A stretch of 12,255 nucleotides of DNA from Candidatus Heimdallarchaeota archaeon (GCA_016839945.1 JAEOTE010000169.1:1-12255); one strand, 5' to 3'. Shown: positions 1 through 12,255, numbered from the stretch's first letter. The notes: generated by a model not told the origin, from the letters alone. Translations and numbers: made by a program.

Positions 1-843
1 ATTCCCAGAGATAAGAAATGGGTTTTGATTATCTCTACTATGTACGGTTGTCCCATTGGTTGCCTAATGTGTGATGCTGGAGAATATTTTCATGGAAATA
101 TCTCCAAAGAGGGAATGTTAGAAGAAATTGATTATATGATTAAAGCTCGATTTCCAGATGGTAAAATTCCTATTGAGAAGTTTAAAGTACAATTTGCAAG
201 AATGGGAGAACCCACTCTAAACAAAGCAGTTCTTGATGTCTTGAGGATGCTACCATCAAAGTATGATGCTCCAGGATTAATGCCATGTATAAGTACTATT
301 GCACCTAAAGGTTCAGAAAAATTCTTAGAAGAATTGATTGAAATTAAGAACCAACTCTATTCTAGTGGCAATTTTCAGTTACAATTTTCTATACACTCAA
401 CAAACGAAGATGAAAGAAAGAAATGGATGAGCTCAAATATTTGGTCATTAAAGAAAATAGCTGATTATGGCAATTTATGGTTTAAGGAAGGAGATAGAAA
501 AATTACACTAAACTTTGCAGTAGCTGAAGATTCAGAAATAGATCCAGACATAATTTTGGAATTCTTTAATCCTAGTAAATATTGGATTAAACTAACTCCT
601 GTTAATCCAACAAATAGAGCACTACATAACAAACTTCAGAGTGGAATAACAGAAGAAAATTCAGAATTTATTCCTCTTCTAGAAGAATTCAGGAAAAGAG
701 GTTTTGAAGCTTCAATAAGTATAGGGGAATGGGAAGAGAACGAGATAGGGTCAAACTGTGGTCAGTTTGCAACAAAATATCAAGATGATGAAGTAACAAT
801 TAGAGAAAATTATACTACAACTAAATATCATCTATCAGATTAA
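1..843 (+). CDS. RlmN/Cfr-like radical SAM protein (5' end truncated by the window edge)
   Basis: Frame +1 is open from base 1 (IPRDKKWVLIISTMYG...), so the track start at 25 is not the real start. CxxxCxxC motif CPIGCLMC (49-72), MGEP (202-213), SIHS, KLTPVNP and C-terminal SNCGQ match the RlmN/Cfr motifs MGEP, SLHA, NLIPxNP and AACGQL. Confidence 0.88.
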   Translation: MPRDKKWVLIISTMYGCPIGCLMCDAGEYFHGNISKEGMLEEIDYMIKARFPDGKIPIEKFKVQFARMGEPTLNKAVLDVLRMLPSKYDAPGLMPCISTIAPKGSEKFLEELIEIKNQLYSSGNFQLQFSIHSTNEDERKKWMSSNIWSLKKIADYGNLWFKEGDRKITLNFAVAEDSEIDPDIILEFFNPSKYWIKLTPVNPTNRALHNKLQSGITEENSEFIPLLEEFRKRGFEASISIGEWEENEIGSNCGQFATKYQDDEVTIRENYTTTKYHLSD

Positions 844-861
844 CTAAAGATGCCTTGTTTT

Positions 862-1701
862 TCAATTACTTTGTTTTTTATGTATAAGCTCATTGATTGT
901 TTGAGCTATCATATTTTTTGGAGATTCAGCATCTCCAAGAATTTTTATACTGTCAATATCAATTTCACCCAATCCTCTTCTTCTAGCTTCTTGAAGTACA
1001 GGCATTTCTGTAGGTTCAAAACCAACTAAATAGGCTCCAACTGCTTCAACTGCAAATGCATCTCTTCCAACTATGAGTTTCTTTGAAGAAGCAGTTTTCC
1101 TCTCCTCACCATGCCCTAGATAAGTATGTGTTCCATCTAATATCGCTAAATCAATTCCACCTACTGCTTCATACATATCCAAAAGAGCTGTGGGGAGTTT
1201 TTTATGAAATCTGTATTTCTTTGTATCAGGAATTAAACCCAATAGATTCTTAATAATAGAACCCAAATTCATTAAATCTTCATCCCCAGCCTCTTCATAT
1301 CTTCTTGGTACATGAGTACTGATGAATATATTAGGTTTAAAGAGTACATGTGACAATGGAACATCTTCTCCGGCAACATTGACCATTTTTGTTTTTTTGT
1401 CATGTGAAAGATTGAATGGCTTAGCTCTCTCATTAAAACAATCTTTCCAGATTTCTAAACGTTCCAATCCTGGCCCTGCACCACTATCTGATTCCACAAC
1501 TCGAATATCTGTAATTTTAGAGAATGATTTAATGATAGAGTTAAGTGTTTTTACTGTTGTGCAAATATTTGTATCTGGATTGTAAATTCCAACCTTAATA
1601 GTCAATTTCTTTTCTGAATTATTAAGATCATTAATCCCACCAATCAAATCTATTGCTTTATTGAATTCATTAATATCTACTATAGCAACTTTTGGAACCA
1701 T
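862..1701 (-). CDS. DUF362 domain-containing protein (divergent)
   Basis: 279 aa ORF. VVESD, IKNLLGLIP..KYRFH, DLAILDG, GRDAFAVEAVGAYLVGFEP and RRGLG match the DUF362 pattern. A GAAGGTG SD-like motif lies 7 nt upstream of the ATG. Confidence 0.8.
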   Translation of the reverse strand: MVPKVAIVDINEFNKAIDLIGGINDLNNSEKKLTIKVGIYNPDTNICTTVKTLNSIIKSFSKITDIRVVESDSGAGPGLERLEIWKDCFNERAKPFNLSHDKKTKMVNVAGEDVPLSHVLFKPNIFISTHVPRRYEEAGDEDLMNLGSIIKNLLGLIPDTKKYRFHKKLPTALLDMYEAVGGIDLAILDGTHTYLGHGEERKTASSKKLIVGRDAFAVEAVGAYLVGFEPTEMPVLQEARRRGLGEIDIDSIKILGDAESPKNMIAQTINELIHKKQSN

Positions 1702-5178: not shown

Positions 5179-6060
5179 TTAATGTGGATGCCATTCCACA
5201 TTTCCTTCATTATCAATTGTTGCCCCCGAATGACGAAGTGCCCAACAAGAAATAACTACACCCACAGGTAAACTCGCAGGATGTCTTGCTGCAAATTCCA
5301 TATGAACATCTAAAACAGATGGTCCTTCACCTAGACCCATAGCCCCGATTTCTAGTTTATTTAGTACATTGAGAAGTTCTTTCTCTATAGAAGCTATTTT
5401 CTCATCTTTATGATACTGATAGAGTGGTCTCAGAAGTGCTTTCTTTGCTAGGTTCATACACATGTCTTCACCACCACCAACTCCTACACCTACTACGTAG
5501 GGTGGGCATGCAAGAGGACCAGCAGCTGCAAGTGCTTCAACAACAAACTCTTTTACACCTTTGATGCCTTTTCCTGGTGGTATCATTTTCATTTTTCCAA
5601 CATTGGAAGAACCTCCACCTTTAGGCATAGCTATGATCTCACAATTATCTCCTTCAACTAAATCAAAATAGAACCAAGGTACAAAGCCACGTAATCCTAC
5701 ATTGTTTTTGGTGTTGCCTTCAAACATGTCAACTGCATTTGGTCTCAATGGAACATTTTGAGTAGCTTTTTTTGTGCCTTTAATCAAAGCAGTTTTCACT
5801 TCAGATCTTAAAGGAAATTTATCCCCAACTTTTACAAAAAACGAAACAAGTCCAGTATCTTGACACATTGGTTTACTTTGATCTTCTGCGATGCTAACAT
5901 TCTCGTTTATTGCTTGTAATTGTGATTTTCCTAAAGCTCCTTCGGTTTCTTTTTCACCTTTTAGAAGAGATTCCTTAACTTCAGTAGGTAATTTTGTCGC
6001 AGCTATTTTCAATAATTTTGCTGCTGTATCCTCAATAACTTGTGCTATATCTTTCATCAT
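5179..6060 (-). CDS. Class I Fe-S fumarate hydratase, alpha subunit (TtdA/FumA N-terminal family)
   Basis: Cluster-ligand motifs CQDTG, ACPPY and SCWA, plus PLRPN and HPASLPV. KGGGS is fumarase-type, whereas E. coli TtdA has AGGGC. Confidence 0.93.
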   Translation of the reverse strand: MMKDIAQVIEDTAAKLLKIAATKLPTEVKESLLKGEKETEGALGKSQLQAINENVSIAEDQSKPMCQDTGLVSFFVKVGDKFPLRSEVKTALIKGTKKATQNVPLRPNAVDMFEGNTKNNVGLRGFVPWFYFDLVEGDNCEIIAMPKGGGSSNVGKMKMIPPGKGIKGVKEFVVEALAAAGPLACPPYVVGVGVGGGEDMCMNLAKKALLRPLYQYHKDEKIASIEKELLNVLNKLEIGAMGLGEGPSVLDVHMEFAARHPASLPVGVVISCWALRHSGATIDNEGNVEWHPH

Positions 6061-6657
6061 TTACAACTCCTGTAAAATTTTTTCCTTATTTGCTTCAATA
6101 TTTTTCTTTGATTCATCTGTAAGATTTCCACCATGTGTATCGATTGTAACAGTTAATGGCCCAAACTCTTCTACTTCATAAACCCATAAACATTCAGGCA
6201 TTCCTAGTTCCTCTAACCAGAAAACATCTTTAACTTGCTTTATTCGATCTGCAGCTAATAATGCTGCTCCTCCAGTAAAGTATCCATATATGCATTTTTC
6301 ATCTTGACATGCTTTTGATGTTCTTTCACCCATTCCTCCTTTACCAATGATCACAGATGGATGAAAAACTTTAATGAATTCATCTTGGAAAATCTCCATT
6401 CTTGCTGAAGTTGTGGGACCTGCTGCTACTACAGTCCACTCTCCTTGTTCATTCTTTTTCATTACAGGACCACAATGAAAAAGTCCTATTCCTTCAAAAT
6501 CAACAGGTGGTTTCTTACCCTCTTTATGTAATTCTAATGCTTTAAGATGTGCTTCATCTCTAGCAGTTACCACAGTACCTGTTAAATATACAATATCTCC
6601 AATCTTAATCTCCTTCAACTTTTTGGGAGGGATAGGAGTAGTTAAATGGAATTCCAT
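6061..6657 (-). CDS. Class I Fe-S fumarate hydratase, beta subunit (FumA C-terminus/TtdB family)
   Basis: TARDEAH, HCGPV, GPTTSARM, IGKGGM, LGMPE and DTHG motifs. Directly adjacent to the alpha subunit. Confidence 0.94.
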   Translation of the reverse strand: MEFHLTTPIPPKKLKEIKIGDIVYLTGTVVTARDEAHLKALELHKEGKKPPVDFEGIGLFHCGPVMKKNEQGEWTVVAAGPTTSARMEIFQDEFIKVFHPSVIIGKGGMGERTSKACQDEKCIYGYFTGGAALLAADRIKQVKDVFWLEELGMPECLWVYEVEEFGPLTVTIDTHGGNLTDESKKNIEANKEKILQEL

Positions 6658-6766: not shown

Positions 6767-7537
6767 ATGCGAAAAAGAGATGAAAAAATTACTAAAGTTG
6801 CAGAACTAATTGTTCAAGCAGAAAGTATAATGTTCTTTACTGGTGCTGGAACAAGTGTTCATAGTGGAATCCCTGATTTTCGATCTCCTGGAGGTATTTG
6901 GGAAAAATATAGTCCTGCTGAATATGCAACACTCGCAGCTTTTCATAAAAACCCAGAGAAGATATGGAACTTCTTCCGAGACATGTATGTTAAATTTTCT
7001 GAACCTGAACCTAATCTGATTCATCATGCAATAACTGATATACAACAACTCAAAGGAGAAAACAAAGTACATATAGCTACACAAAATATAGATGGTCTTC
7101 ATCAGAAATCTGGTTCAACAAATGTTTTTGAGTTACATGGAACAACCGAAAAATTACATTGTCTAAGATGTTTATATGAAGAACAAGTTGAACCAGAAAA
7201 GCACTTAGAATTATTACCTTATCCAATTTGTCCAAAATGTAAAAAACCTTTGAAACCTAGTGTTATTCTCTTTGGTGAATCTCTTGATATGAATATTTTT
7301 CGACCAGCGATGAAGATTGCTAAAAGAAGTGATATTGCGATAGGAGTAGCTACTAGCTTAGAAGTATTTCCTGCAGCAGATATATTGCTTGCTCCTCCTC
7401 CAAATAAAACAAAAAAAGCATTATTCAATCTCACAAAAACCTACTACGATAAATTAATTCATTATGTAATTAAAGGAGATGCAATAGAAACACTTCCTCA
7501 ATTAGTTGAAGAAGTCAAAAAATTAGAAAAAAAATGA
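6767..7537 (+). CDS. cobB: NAD-dependent protein deacylase, Sir2/CobB sirtuin family
   Basis: GAGTSVHSGIPDFRSP, TQNIDGLHQ, catalytic ELHG, Zn ligands CLRC/CPKC, KPSVILFGE, TSLEVFPAA and FNLTKT. Confidence 0.93.
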   Translation: MRKRDEKITKVAELIVQAESIMFFTGAGTSVHSGIPDFRSPGGIWEKYSPAEYATLAAFHKNPEKIWNFFRDMYVKFSEPEPNLIHHAITDIQQLKGENKVHIATQNIDGLHQKSGSTNVFELHGTTEKLHCLRCLYEEQVEPEKHLELLPYPICPKCKKPLKPSVILFGESLDMNIFRPAMKIAKRSDIAIGVATSLEVFPAADILLAPPPNKTKKALFNLTKTYYDKLIHYVIKGDAIETLPQLVEEVKKLEKK

Positions 7538-8773: not shown

Positions 8774-10201
8774 ATGAAGGAAGAGCAGATGAATAAAGAG
8801 ATCAAGATACGTTTTGGATTGGCTTTTGATTTAATTATTGAATCAAATGAAGAAATCGAAGACTCAGATTTACTTAGATTCCTTAAATCTAATCCTAAAA
8901 AGAATAACGAATATCGAGCTCTTCCACATTTATACCAAAAAATCATTGATTTGTTTGAAGATAAAGGGTATTCTGTAGATTCTGCTGTTTTGAATGAACC
9001 AAATTTAACAGAACAATATTCTAACAAAGTTATTGTAAACTTAAAACTTCGGGAATACCAACAAGAAGCTCTAAGACTATTCTTTGAAAATAAAGGTAAA
9101 GGTGTGGTTATACTCCCAACTGCAGCAGGAAAAACAGTAATAGGTCTAAAAGCAATTGAGGAGCTTAAGCAAAAAACAATTATTGTTGTTCCAACAAAGA
9201 ATTTACTTTATCAATGGATAGAATATCTAACAAGATATACAGCATTAAGAAGAGACATGATAGGACAACTTGGTGATCAAGTCAAGGATATTAAGGAGAT
9301 CACTGTTACAACATACGATAGTGCGAGAATACCAGCTAATATTAACAAACTAAGAAAGGATTTTAATTTACTAATTTTTGATGAAGCACATCATGGTGCT
9401 GCTAAAGAAACTCTAAAAGTGCTAAAGGGGCTTCCTGCAATTTATAGACTAGGGTTAACAGCTACACCTGATAGGTCAGATAAGGGAGAAGAATTACTTT
9501 TTAAATTAATAGGAAAGCCAATCGTTGTTACCAAGGTTTCAGAATTAGCAGAGAAGGGTTATGTTGCAAAATATGAATTAAAAACACTGAAAGTTCCTTT
9601 GGAAGATGAAGAAAGACAGCTATATGAAAAATATATGAAGACATATAGAGGTTATTTAAAAAGAAGAAATATACAAATAAAAACACCTCAAGATTATGAA
9701 AAGTACCTAATTTTTAGAGTAAATCAAGACATAGAAGCGAAAGAGGCTCTAGATGCCCATAGAAACGCAAGAACACTTGTTTTTTCCTCTAAAGCAAAAT
9801 TGAAAGAAATAGAAAAGCTGCTAATTGAACACGAAGATGATCAAATGATCATTTTTTCGGAATTTAATGAAATGGTTTATGATATAAGCAAAAACCACCT
9901 AATACCAGCTATAACGCATGAAACGAAAACATCAGAGCGAGAGGAAATCCTGGGAAAATTTAGTGAAGGATTATACACAAAAATAGTAACAGGAAAAGTT
10001 CTGGATGAGGGGTGGGATTGTGGGAATGTTAATGTTGGTATAATTGTAAGTGGAACTGGTCAAGCTAGACAGTTTATACAAAGATTAGGGAGAATTTTGA
10101 GACCAAAAGAGGGAGATGCGGTTCTCTATGAGTTGGTAACTCCAGAGACTCTTGAAGCTGGGACTGTTAAAAGAAGAAGAAAAACAGAGGTATTTGAATG
10201 A
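8774..10201 (+). CDS. xpb: XPB/Rad25 (SSL2)-family SF2 DNA repair helicase
   Basis: LREYQ Q-motif, PTAAGKT, DEAH, TATPDRSD (RED-motif position), VLDEGWD and QRLGRILR. Coupled to a DUF790 gene. An alternative ATG start is at 8789. Confidence 0.9.
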   Translation: MKEEQMNKEIKIRFGLAFDLIIESNEEIEDSDLLRFLKSNPKKNNEYRALPHLYQKIIDLFEDKGYSVDSAVLNEPNLTEQYSNKVIVNLKLREYQQEALRLFFENKGKGVVILPTAAGKTVIGLKAIEELKQKTIIVVPTKNLLYQWIEYLTRYTALRRDMIGQLGDQVKDIKEITVTTYDSARIPANINKLRKDFNLLIFDEAHHGAAKETLKVLKGLPAIYRLGLTATPDRSDKGEELLFKLIGKPIVVTKVSELAEKGYVAKYELKTLKVPLEDEERQLYEKYMKTYRGYLKRRNIQIKTPQDYEKYLIFRVNQDIEAKEALDAHRNARTLVFSSKAKLKEIEKLLIEHEDDQMIIFSEFNEMVYDISKNHLIPAITHETKTSEREEILGKFSEGLYTKIVTGKVLDEGWDCGNVNVGIIVSGTGQARQFIQRLGRILRPKEGDAVLYELVTPETLEAGTVKRRRKTEVFE

Positions 10202-11919
10202 GAATTTCTTTATCAAATCTAGAATTTAATATCCAAGGATCTGGAGCAAATGCTGTTTTTCAACCTATGTTTCTTCAAACAGAGGAAAGTAATAAGGTTC
10301 AAGCTTTCATCCAATTTCTTGAGGAAAATGTAAATATCAAAAAATCAAAAATTCCTTTTAATCTTCTCTCAGGTCTTTTTCCTTCAGAAAAAATATCCAA
10401 ATCTCTTACTGTTTCCTCGAATAGATTTTACTCTTTTTCATCTCAGTCAATAAGTGATTTGCTAGGAATATCGAAAGAAGAAGAAAAAACTCCAATCCAA
10501 AGTGAGAATATTGCGGATTTTCTTTCAAAGTCAGAAAAAATTAAGACACCAATAATCAATTTGACTCCTCAGCAAATTAGAGGAAAAATCTTTGATTTAG
10601 CTAATAAATCCTCAAAAGGTTTTGTTTCATTGGAAAAACGAATAGATCTAGTTGCAGAAATTGAAAAAGAACTGAATATTCCGAAGAATAAGCTTGATGA
10701 GCTTCTCTACATTGATACAGATTCCGAACAAATTTTGATTAAAAATAATGATGTTGAGCCTATTCAATTGATTTGCTATTTCAACTATGACACAATTGAA
10801 ACTATTCTTTGTTTTGCCTTAAATCTTCAAATAATAATGAAAAAACTCCCTGGATATTTAGCGAAGAACTTGGTTTTCATTTCAAAGAAGAATTATGTTT
10901 TTACGGACATTACGTTGAGTGAAGAAGGTTATCAAATAAGTATCGAACCACCACTCGAATTGTACCGTGATACAAGCAGTTGGGGAAGAAACATCTCAAA
11001 TGTAGCAACCTATATTTTACGAACAATTCTTCGTGAAGAGATACCATTCCAATTAAAAGCAGCTGTTCGTCCAAGAAAAAGAAGAGCTAGTTTTACTCTC
11101 AGTTCTGAATATTTACCTTTATTGCCTTCATTCAAAAAGAGTGAAGATGAGGAGTTCAAACCTGAAATCGATTCAAAAGTTGAAAGTAAATTCTTGAAAA
11201 CATGGAGAAATTACAAAGGATGGAAAGCTAAACCTGAACCAGAAGCGATTATAGCTGGTAAGAAAATGTATGTACCAGATTTCTTACTTCAAAGAGGGGA
11301 AAAAGAAGTTTATCTAGAGATTGTTGGTTATTATACAATGAAATATATTCAGAAGAAAAAAATGCAAATGAAAGAGCTTTCAAGGTTAGGGATCCCTATA
11401 ATTTATTTGATAGATGAAAGTATAGAAAGCAATTTTTCAGATGTAAAAGGAGTAGTTACAACTATCTTTTCAGGAACTGATATACCCAACAATGAGGTTG
11501 CAAGGTTACTTGAAGAGAAATATACTGATTACGAAGAAAGACTTCCTATTTTGAAAGAGAGAGTCGAAGTTTTATGTTATGAAATAAATGATAAGTTGCA
11601 GTTAATGACAATTCAAAGAGTACAACAGAGACTAGAAACATATACTACAGAAGAAGCCAGTAAAGCATTAACAGAAAAGGATATCTCAAATCTACTGAAA
11701 GAAAACAAAATACTCTTTTTATCTAGTTTTGGACTTGTTAAAGAGGATGTTGTGAAAGAGGTTCAAACATTCATGGAGACAATCGACACTATAAGTTTAT
11801 CAAAACTTAAAGAAGAATTTCTTGATTATAAAGAAGCTTTGATTATCATTTGTCAGCATCTAGGACACAATGTTAACTGGAAATCAATTAATGATATCGA
11901 AATTTCTACAACAAAATAG
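10198..11919 (+). CDS. bax1: Bax1 / DUF790-family endonuclease (XPB partner)
   Basis: DSKVESKF...GW...PEPE...VPDF...YLEIVGYYT..Y..KK matches the DUF790 nuclease signature (DSxxE...EPE...PDF...EIVGFWT). ATGA 4-nt overlap with the XPB stop codon. Confidence 0.88.
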   Translation: MRISLSNLEFNIQGSGANAVFQPMFLQTEESNKVQAFIQFLEENVNIKKSKIPFNLLSGLFPSEKISKSLTVSSNRFYSFSSQSISDLLGISKEEEKTPIQSENIADFLSKSEKIKTPIINLTPQQIRGKIFDLANKSSKGFVSLEKRIDLVAEIEKELNIPKNKLDELLYIDTDSEQILIKNNDVEPIQLICYFNYDTIETILCFALNLQIIMKKLPGYLAKNLVFISKKNYVFTDITLSEEGYQISIEPPLELYRDTSSWGRNISNVATYILRTILREEIPFQLKAAVRPRKRRASFTLSSEYLPLLPSFKKSEDEEFKPEIDSKVESKFLKTWRNYKGWKAKPEPEAIIAGKKMYVPDFLLQRGEKEVYLEIVGYYTMKYIQKKKMQMKELSRLGIPIIYLIDESIESNFSDVKGVVTTIFSGTDIPNNEVARLLEEKYTDYEERLPILKERVEVLCYEINDKLQLMTIQRVQQRLETYTTEEASKALTEKDISNLLKENKILFLSSFGLVKEDVVKEVQTFMETIDTISLSKLKEEFLDYKEALIIICQHLGHNVNWKSINDIEISTTK

Positions 11920-11989: not shown

Positions 11990-12255
11990 ATGCCAGATAA
12001 GATTGCAATTATTGGAGGGTCAGGAGTATATGATATTTTTAAGAGACCACAGAAGGTTTCTGTAAAAACACCCTATGGTAAAGCAGGCAGTATTAGAAAA
12101 GTTACACACAAGGATGTAGAGGTGTTTTTCCTCCCTAGACATGGTCCAAAACATTCAGTTCCACCTCATCTTATAAATTATAGAGCTAATATCTATGCAT
12201 TATATAGTTTAGGAGTGACTAAGATTTTTGCAACTAATGCTGTAGGTTCAATTGA
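11990..12255 (+). CDS. mtnP: MTAP/MTIP-family purine nucleoside phosphorylase (3' end truncated; absent from the ORF track)
   Basis: Manual translation from ATG 11990 gives MPDKIAIIGGSGVY...KTPYG...FLPRHGPKHSVPPHLINYRANIYALYSLGVTKIFATNAVGSI. It contains GGSG, TPYG, RHG..H..PP, NYRANI and AVGS, and is open to the window end. Confidence 0.93.
   Translation, partial: MPDKIAIIGGSGVYDIFKRPQKVSVKTPYGKAGSIRKVTHKDVEVFFLPRHGPKHSVPPHLINYRANIYALYSLGVTKIFATNAVGSI

Follow-up and report, generated by a model that had tools for sequence, protein, structure and literature searches.

The radical SAM open reading frame (ORF) at the start of the DNA analyzed here very probably encodes the radical SAM subunit of a three-gene cassette, not an RlmN or Cfr methyltransferase. 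The window, meaning the whole stretch of DNA analyzed, is a complete contig of 12,255 nt from an 88%-complete genome assembly of a Heimdall-type Asgard archaeon. In relatives the three cassette genes overlap and occur in the order isochorismatase-fold cysteine hydrolase, thioredoxin-reductase-like flavoprotein, radical SAM gene. This context is the strongest argument that the protein has a non-ribosomal job.

Frame 1 is open from the first base of the contig to a TAA at 841-843 and encodes 280 residues. Full-length relatives, the closest of which reach 96% identity, are 314 aa long, so 34 N-terminal residues are missing at the contig edge. A search of the 88%-complete assembly did not recover the lost residues at any other site. 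The preliminary description had assigned bases 1-843 to the enzyme, which holds for the ORF but needs the correction that this copy is cut by the contig start and lacks its 5' 34 codons. The motif codons that it listed (Ile, cluster Cys, MGEP and two further Cys) are all in place (Table 1). The three cluster Cys of CPIGCLMC are encoded at 49-51, 61-63 and 70-72, and the Asp codon occupies 73-75. A decayed RlmN pseudogene was ruled out by the intact frame, the 96% identity to a full-length protein, and the strong conservation of the family.

Table 1. Coordinates of the radical SAM gene, its motifs, and the other genes of the window.
Feature	Coordinates	Strand	Evidence
Radical SAM gene, 3' part (280 codons plus TAA)	1..843	+	96% identity to 314-aa homologue
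Ile at the RlmN Cys118 position, 7 residues ahead of the first cluster Cys	28..30	+	HMMER and profile-profile alignment
CxxxCxxC [4Fe-4S] cluster motif plus clade-specific Asp	49..75	+	Conservation in 75/75 homologues (Asp)
MGEP, the radical SAM 'GGE' SAM-binding motif, common to RlmN/Cfr	202..213	+	Alignments
Cys in MPCISTIAP, not conserved	286..288	+	Cys 28, Ser 29, Ala 7, Thr 6, Val 1 in 75 homologues
Cys of the C-terminal GSNCGQ loop, RlmN Cys355 equivalent	757..759	+	HMMER and hhalign to RlmN CGQ
DUF362 protein	862..1701	-	
Kelch-repeat protein, 397 aa	3273..4466	-	Strong matches to eukaryote-type Kelch beta-propeller families
Class I fumarate hydratase alpha and beta	5179..6657	-	
Sir2-family deacylase	6767..7537	+	
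XPB/Rad25-type helicase and DUF790 protein	8774..11919		ResIII, Helicase_C, ERCC3_RAD25_C (helicase)
PNP_UDP_1 phosphorylase, start	11990..12253	+	

The XPB/Rad25-type helicase gene overlaps the gene for a 573-aa DUF790 protein by 4 nt. DUF790 is the family of Bax1, the archaeal XPB partner nuclease, and the two genes are an ordinary archaeal repair pair. Eukaryote-type Kelch proteins like the one encoded here are typical of Asgard genomes. The fumarase genes are syntenic in relatives, the DUF362 and radical SAM genes converge, and only the beginning of the phosphorylase gene is present, at the contig end. None of the fumarase, Sir2, DUF362 and PNP_UDP_1 genes is linked to the cassette.

The relation to RlmN and Cfr was examined with sequence models, profiles and a predicted structure. 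Pfam gave a radical SAM match to the window protein below threshold only. The best NCBIfam matches were the RlmN and Cfr models, which spanned nearly the whole core and scored far under their curated cut-offs: 34.8 vs 290 bits for TIGR00048 (RlmN), 34.4 vs 530 for CfrAB (NF000424) and 30.5 vs 550 for TIGR04432. TIGR00048 also had a sub-threshold match in one of the control genomes, that of Methanocaldococcus jannaschii. In RlmN, C355 is the methyl carrier and C118 is held to act as base. HMMER searches against PDB sequences paired KKWVLIISTMYGC with DRATL(C118A)VSSQVGC of E. coli RlmN, so that the Ile falls on residue 118. Four genuine RlmN were taken from bacteria in whose genomes the window's radical SAM family is found as well. 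Profile-profile comparison (hhalign) between these and 40 family members gave a probability of 99.4% and an E value of 1.3e-21. A hydrophobic column of the family lies on RlmN Cys118, and NCGQ lies on the RlmN CGQ. Identity of window-type proteins to RlmN/Cfr is only 17-19%.

The AlphaFold2 model of a full-length homologue has a pLDDT of 94.6. When the model was searched against the PDB using Foldseek, the 11 best matches were all RlmN/Cfr (E 7e-15 to 3e-8, TM about 0.7). The next radical SAM fold appeared only from about E 4e-5, and spore photoproduct lyase was among the weaker matches. Judging from the profiles and the predicted model, the likeness of the family to RlmN is not a chance resemblance. 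The original designation as an RlmN/Cfr-like radical SAM enzyme was thus borne out by HMMER, hhalign and Foldseek.

The family and RlmN/Cfr (PDB 3rfa, 5hr7, 6fz6, 9p0p) have in common the core fold with CxxxCxxC, the MGEP, SxH..R and NP motifs, a Glu in the N-terminal strand before the core that is conserved in the alignments of both groups, and a Cys in the C-terminal CGQ loop, whose methylation in the family is predicted only. They differ in that the family has no equivalent of the resolving Cys118, reaches roughly one tenth of the curated cut-offs, and carries Asp after the cluster motif where RlmN has Ala or Ser. The hhalign alignment starts at RlmN column 91, and full-length homologues have about 50 residues ahead of the cluster motif. 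The N-terminal helical RNA-binding domain of RlmN therefore has no counterpart in the family, and the proteins are 314 aa long as against about 350-400 aa. The pI is 5.0 for the window protein and 6.3 for the family median, compared with 8.6-9.2 for 3/4 RlmN, which would count weakly against an RNA substrate. Finally, the family is linked or fused to the cysteine hydrolase and the flavoprotein, and is found beside true RlmN in genomes.

These differences bear on the initial claim that the protein cannot be a canonical m2A/m8A methyltransferase. The part that stands is that it is not a canonical RlmN/Cfr, given the scores, the missing C118 and RNA-binding domain, and the presence of true RlmN in carriers. 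To say that it cannot methylate was an overstatement, as a carboxylate could stand in for C118 as base. JGI labels many members of the clade '23S rRNA (adenine2503-C2)-methyltransferase', a label made doubtful by the absence of a Cys118 equivalent and of an RNA-binding domain. A 2010 survey of Cfr/RlmN reported the family to be absent from Archaea except for one species (PMC2836569), which implies that the C118-less clade was not counted within it.

Conservation was scored in 40 diverse aligned sequences and in 75 genomic homologues at 48-82% identity. The position seven residues ahead of the first cluster Cys (-7) is Ile in 51, Leu in 15, Met in 5 and Val in 4 of the 75 homologues, and Cys in 0/115 sequences when both samples are combined. 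The 40-sequence alignment shows no variation at the three cluster Cys or at the CGQ Cys. The C-terminal motif is CGQ in 72/75 homologues and CGM in 2/75, and Asp directly follows CxxxCxxC in 75/75. The C118 loss first noticed in the window sequence is thus family-wide, no conserved Cys being found at that site, and the methyl-carrier Cys said to be retained is near invariant and aligned with the RlmN CGQ. Two other suggestions did not survive the comparison. The Cys in MPCISTIAP had been put forward as a substitute resolving residue; it is Cys in only 28/75 homologues and cannot be the family's resolving residue, so this candidate was rejected. The Met before the third cluster Cys had been pointed out as replacing the usual aromatic residue, but it is the family norm (Met 53, Phe 13, Ile 9 among the 75 homologues) and says little.

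In a quick maximum-likelihood tree the proteins lacking C118 all grouped together, separate from true RlmN, with an SH-aLRT support of 99. C118 was therefore lost, and the Asp gained, once and early, and these two changes mark out a large group that is sister to RlmN/Cfr. The clade comprises 657 clusters at 50% identity (E up to 0.001).

The neighborhood comparison suggested in the preliminary description was run on relatives and revealed a conserved cassette upstream of the radical SAM gene, in a region that here lies off the contig. A scan of 185,579 species genomes yielded more than 528 loci, and neighborhoods were examined in the best 80. In about 70 of these best 80 the same two genes lie directly upstream (downstream in two cases). 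The closest relative, 91% identical, has the full three-gene overlapping cassette, and in 6/9 close relatives a 216-aa isochorismatase-domain protein and a Pyr_redox_2 flavoprotein of roughly 310 aa precede the radical SAM gene. All three pairwise fusions exist (flavoprotein-radical SAM, radical SAM-hydrolase and hydrolase-flavoprotein). The hydrolase keeps the Asp-Lys-Cys triad and is nearest by sequence to EntB-type isochorismatases. The flavoprotein is nearest to thioredoxin reductases and keeps the FAD and second dinucleotide motifs, with a conserved F-Y-E-V-Y in place of the redox CxxC.

The window's own 88%-complete assembly yielded neither the hydrolase nor the flavoprotein gene, and the first base of the window already lies within the radical SAM gene. 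Since both partners are present in the 91%-identical relative and at most loci, we infer that they lie upstream of the contig start here. The window protein itself fits the cassette type, with a full length of about 310 aa, a hydrophobic -7 residue, CxxxCxxC followed by Asp, and a C-terminal NCGQ.

Archaeal carriers of the cassette are Heimdall- and Loki-type Asgard archaea, Thermoplasmata and Bathyarchaeia. Bacterial carriers include Chloroflexota, Zixibacteria, Latescibacteria, Cloacimonadota, Eisenbacteria, WOR-3, Fermentibacteria, Ignavibacteria and others. Promethearchaeum syntrophicum and Lokiarchaeum ossiferum are cultured Asgard carriers. A homologue was present in 77/301 sampled Clostridia genomes (26%), and 30/30 loci inspected were of the cassette type. 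The cassette is spread by horizontal transfer through anaerobic archaea and many bacterial phyla.

Among 88 operonic neighbors no other recurrent transporter, regulator or pathway gene was found. At most 3/88 share a Pfam family, and these are cassette genes in another order, so the cassette is self-contained. Upstream of the cassette, members of the Heimdall genus carry a class I SAM methyltransferase gene (277 aa) and two genes of flavodoxin-like or FMN-reductase type (L016:10580-12810; same in L020-L023). These upstream genes are local and are not conserved outside the genus. PADLOC returned no match that would point to a defence system, ESM Atlas gave matches only to 'radical SAM protein' clusters, and no description of the cassette-type radical SAM family turned up in the literature searched.

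The missing C118 raises the question of how an adduct would be released. According to the titles of PDB 5hr6 and 5hr7, C118A RlmN remains cross-linked to tRNA, and the family lacks that Cys. The protein might then form a stable covalent methylene cross-link, or be a single-turnover sacrificial protein, because the adduct could not be resolved. We regard this as highly improbable. The strongly conserved reductase and hydrolase and the invariant Asp suggest a catalytic cycle, and there is no sign of a gene for a partner 'substrate protein' among the operonic neighbors.

Several known functions were then compared by distribution. Genuine RlmN was found above the cut-off in 4/5 bacterial carriers, and replacement of RlmN was rejected on this ground. 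RaSEA, the beta subunit of archaeosine synthase, is likewise an archaeal radical SAM enzyme, and works in complex with a partner enzyme, ArcS (PMC11298593). Within the archaeal order, however, the window's gene is present in only two of four families and absent from 11 genomes of the two others, whereas ArcS (DUF5591) is present in 30/31 related genomes. The two are not co-distributed, so the gene product is not the obligatory partner of ArcS and an identity with RaSEA was rejected. Replacement of de novo preQ0 synthesis was rejected for the clade, QueC being present in 31/31 relatives. Relatives have QueC and ArcS whether or not they carry the cassette, so nothing links the cassette type to 7-deazaguanine.

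A 'DV/DC' branch inside the C118-less clade keeps the C-terminal Cys as TCGN, not NCGQ. The best curated match of the full-length homologue is the phage family phrog_24834 (121 bits, E 1e-34), which falls in the same C118-less clade and also has Asp after the cluster motif. It differs in being a sister clade with CxxxCxxC-DV/DC and TCGN, a length of about 330-350 aa, and usually no TrxR-like flavoprotein. Our metagenome scan returned this phage-type subgroup. Phage-type loci from human gut and rumen metagenomes (L115, L117, L119, L122 and L125) contain tRNA arrays, tmRNA, a group I intron, Pistol ribozymes and RAGATH-14 RNAs, and genes near the phage-type radical SAM gene encode RtcB, Thg1, TyrRS and a CCA-adding-type enzyme. 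At four phage-type loci (L166:3872-7070, L175:3992-8162, L169:3980-6544 and L172) the radical SAM gene is directly followed by an isochorismatase-domain gene and NAPRTase, or by FMN_red and NAD synthase. That a flavin reductase and an isochorismatase-fold enzyme recur here, as partners not orthologous to those of the cassette, argues for a real functional partnership. The neighbors linked to NAD salvage may indicate a nicotinamide/NAD link or merely an auxiliary-gene island.

The placement of phage-borne relatives amid tRNA arrays and tRNA repair genes could be taken to favor an RNA (tRNA or rRNA) C-methyltransferase, in which a carboxylate replaces Cys118 as base and the partners or another factor recognize the RNA. 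RlmN and Cfr are the only close structural relatives, and both the C355 equivalent and the Glu common to RlmN are conserved. We nevertheless consider an RNA methylase distinctly unlikely. The protein is acidic and without the RNA-binding N-terminal domain, carriers retain true RlmN, and a patchy, horizontally spread distribution (two families of the order; 26% of Clostridia) ill suits a housekeeping mark. The family is moreover linked or fused to an amidohydrolase-type enzyme and a flavoprotein, an association that we do not know for any RNA methylase.

The DV/DC branch also includes proteins fused to the transporter QueT, alone or together with an MTA/SAH-nucleosidase-like domain. Our metagenome scan did not return these fusions. 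Two proteins, P0220 and P0245 (820 and 814 aa), are triple fusions of QueT, C118-less RlmN-like radical SAM and MTA/SAH-nucleosidase-like domains, and P0198 is without the last domain. P0245 comes from a Bacilli MAG, and its NCBI name refers to the nucleosidase only. Such proteins recall QueL, a queuine lyase of the radical SAM type that is encoded in the queK-qrtT-queL salvage operon (Yuan et al. 2019, cited in PMC11130926 and PMC11477304). QueL acts on a free base and not on RNA, and QueT of the fused relatives belongs to the same transporter family as QrtT. The fusion partner thus hints at a possible link between QueL and the clade, although the source names of the fused proteins did not identify them as QueL. 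Unlike the queL operon, cassette loci have neither QueT nor a nucleoside hydrolase or preQ1 riboswitch in their vicinity, and their distribution is unrelated to that of QueC or ArcS. A preQ1 riboswitch was not found at any of 36 loci examined, and no radical SAM gene adjoined the QueT loci in six Clostridia genomes.

These relatives make it conceivable that the cassette protein does not methylate but carries out another radical reaction on a small molecule, for example as a lyase, reductive cleavage enzyme or isomerase. In that case the 5'-deoxyadenosyl radical would take a hydrogen from the substrate, the C-terminal Cys would be a hydrogen donor or thiyl relay, the flavoprotein would re-reduce the system, and the hydrolase would process a fragment. 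Other radical SAM enzymes are known to use a Cys as hydrogen donor. The missing C118, the newly invariant Asp and the missing RNA domain mark a changed reaction, the QueT and nucleosidase-like fusions and the precedent of QueL fit with a lyase, and spore photoproduct lyase is among the weaker fold matches. We judge this explanation somewhat doubtful, though as the leading alternative it deserves serious weight. The CGQ loop is near letter-for-letter that of RlmN, which is most simply explained by retained methyl-Cys chemistry, and the riboswitch, QueT-locus and QueC/ArcS results speak against a 7-deazaguanine role of the cassette type.

The reading that we tentatively prefer, while rating it at rather less than even, is methyl-Cys radical chemistry on a non-ribosomal substrate, with product release that does not use a second Cys. 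The invariant CGQ Cys, the hydrophobic -7 residue, the Asp after the motif, the Glu shared with RlmN and the cassette context are, as far as can be read from sequence, what would be expected of such an enzyme. A first SAM would methylate the C-terminal Cys, as in RlmN. A second SAM would be cleaved reductively, and the resulting 5'-deoxyadenosyl radical would activate the Cys-bound methyl group. The methylene radical would then attack an sp2 carbon of the substrate, which would be non-ribosomal and is probably a small molecule, and the thioether adduct would be freed without a second Cys; the candidate base is the clade-invariant Asp by the cluster motif. Reducing equivalents from the partner flavoprotein possibly aid adduct release. 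From its fold, the flavoprotein is most plausibly also the electron source for the cluster, and the hydrolase, likewise placed by fold, may act on the substrate just before or after the radical step.

Two considerations weigh against methyl-Cys chemistry. A Cys that is conserved close to the radical site might just as well donate a hydrogen atom. If the TCGN sister clade, some members of which are fused to QueT, proved to be the known queuine lyase, the same Cys would sit in a non-methylating enzyme.

To our knowledge, the class A radical SAM methylases so far comprise only RlmN and Cfr, both of which act on RNA and both of which use two Cys. The cassette may constitute a third kind, a methyl (or methylene) synthase acting on a small molecule, with adduct release by a carboxylate base and/or flavin-derived reducing equivalents. 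We hold this fuller version to be rather unlikely, and we know of no precedent for flavin-coupled resolution among radical SAM methylases.

The window itself adds only modestly to the picture, as it holds a truncated copy of one of the three cassette genes. Its importance lies in the group to which that gene belongs, a large sister clade of RlmN/Cfr (thousands of sequences) that has a single Cys, has gained an invariant Asp and is linked to a hydrolase and a flavoprotein. Once found, the substrate would show either that methyl-Cys radical chemistry reaches beyond RNA or how the RlmN scaffold came to be rebuilt for another reaction. It would also provide an annotation for genes now called 'radical SAM protein' or, wrongly, given the name of the 23S rRNA methyltransferase.
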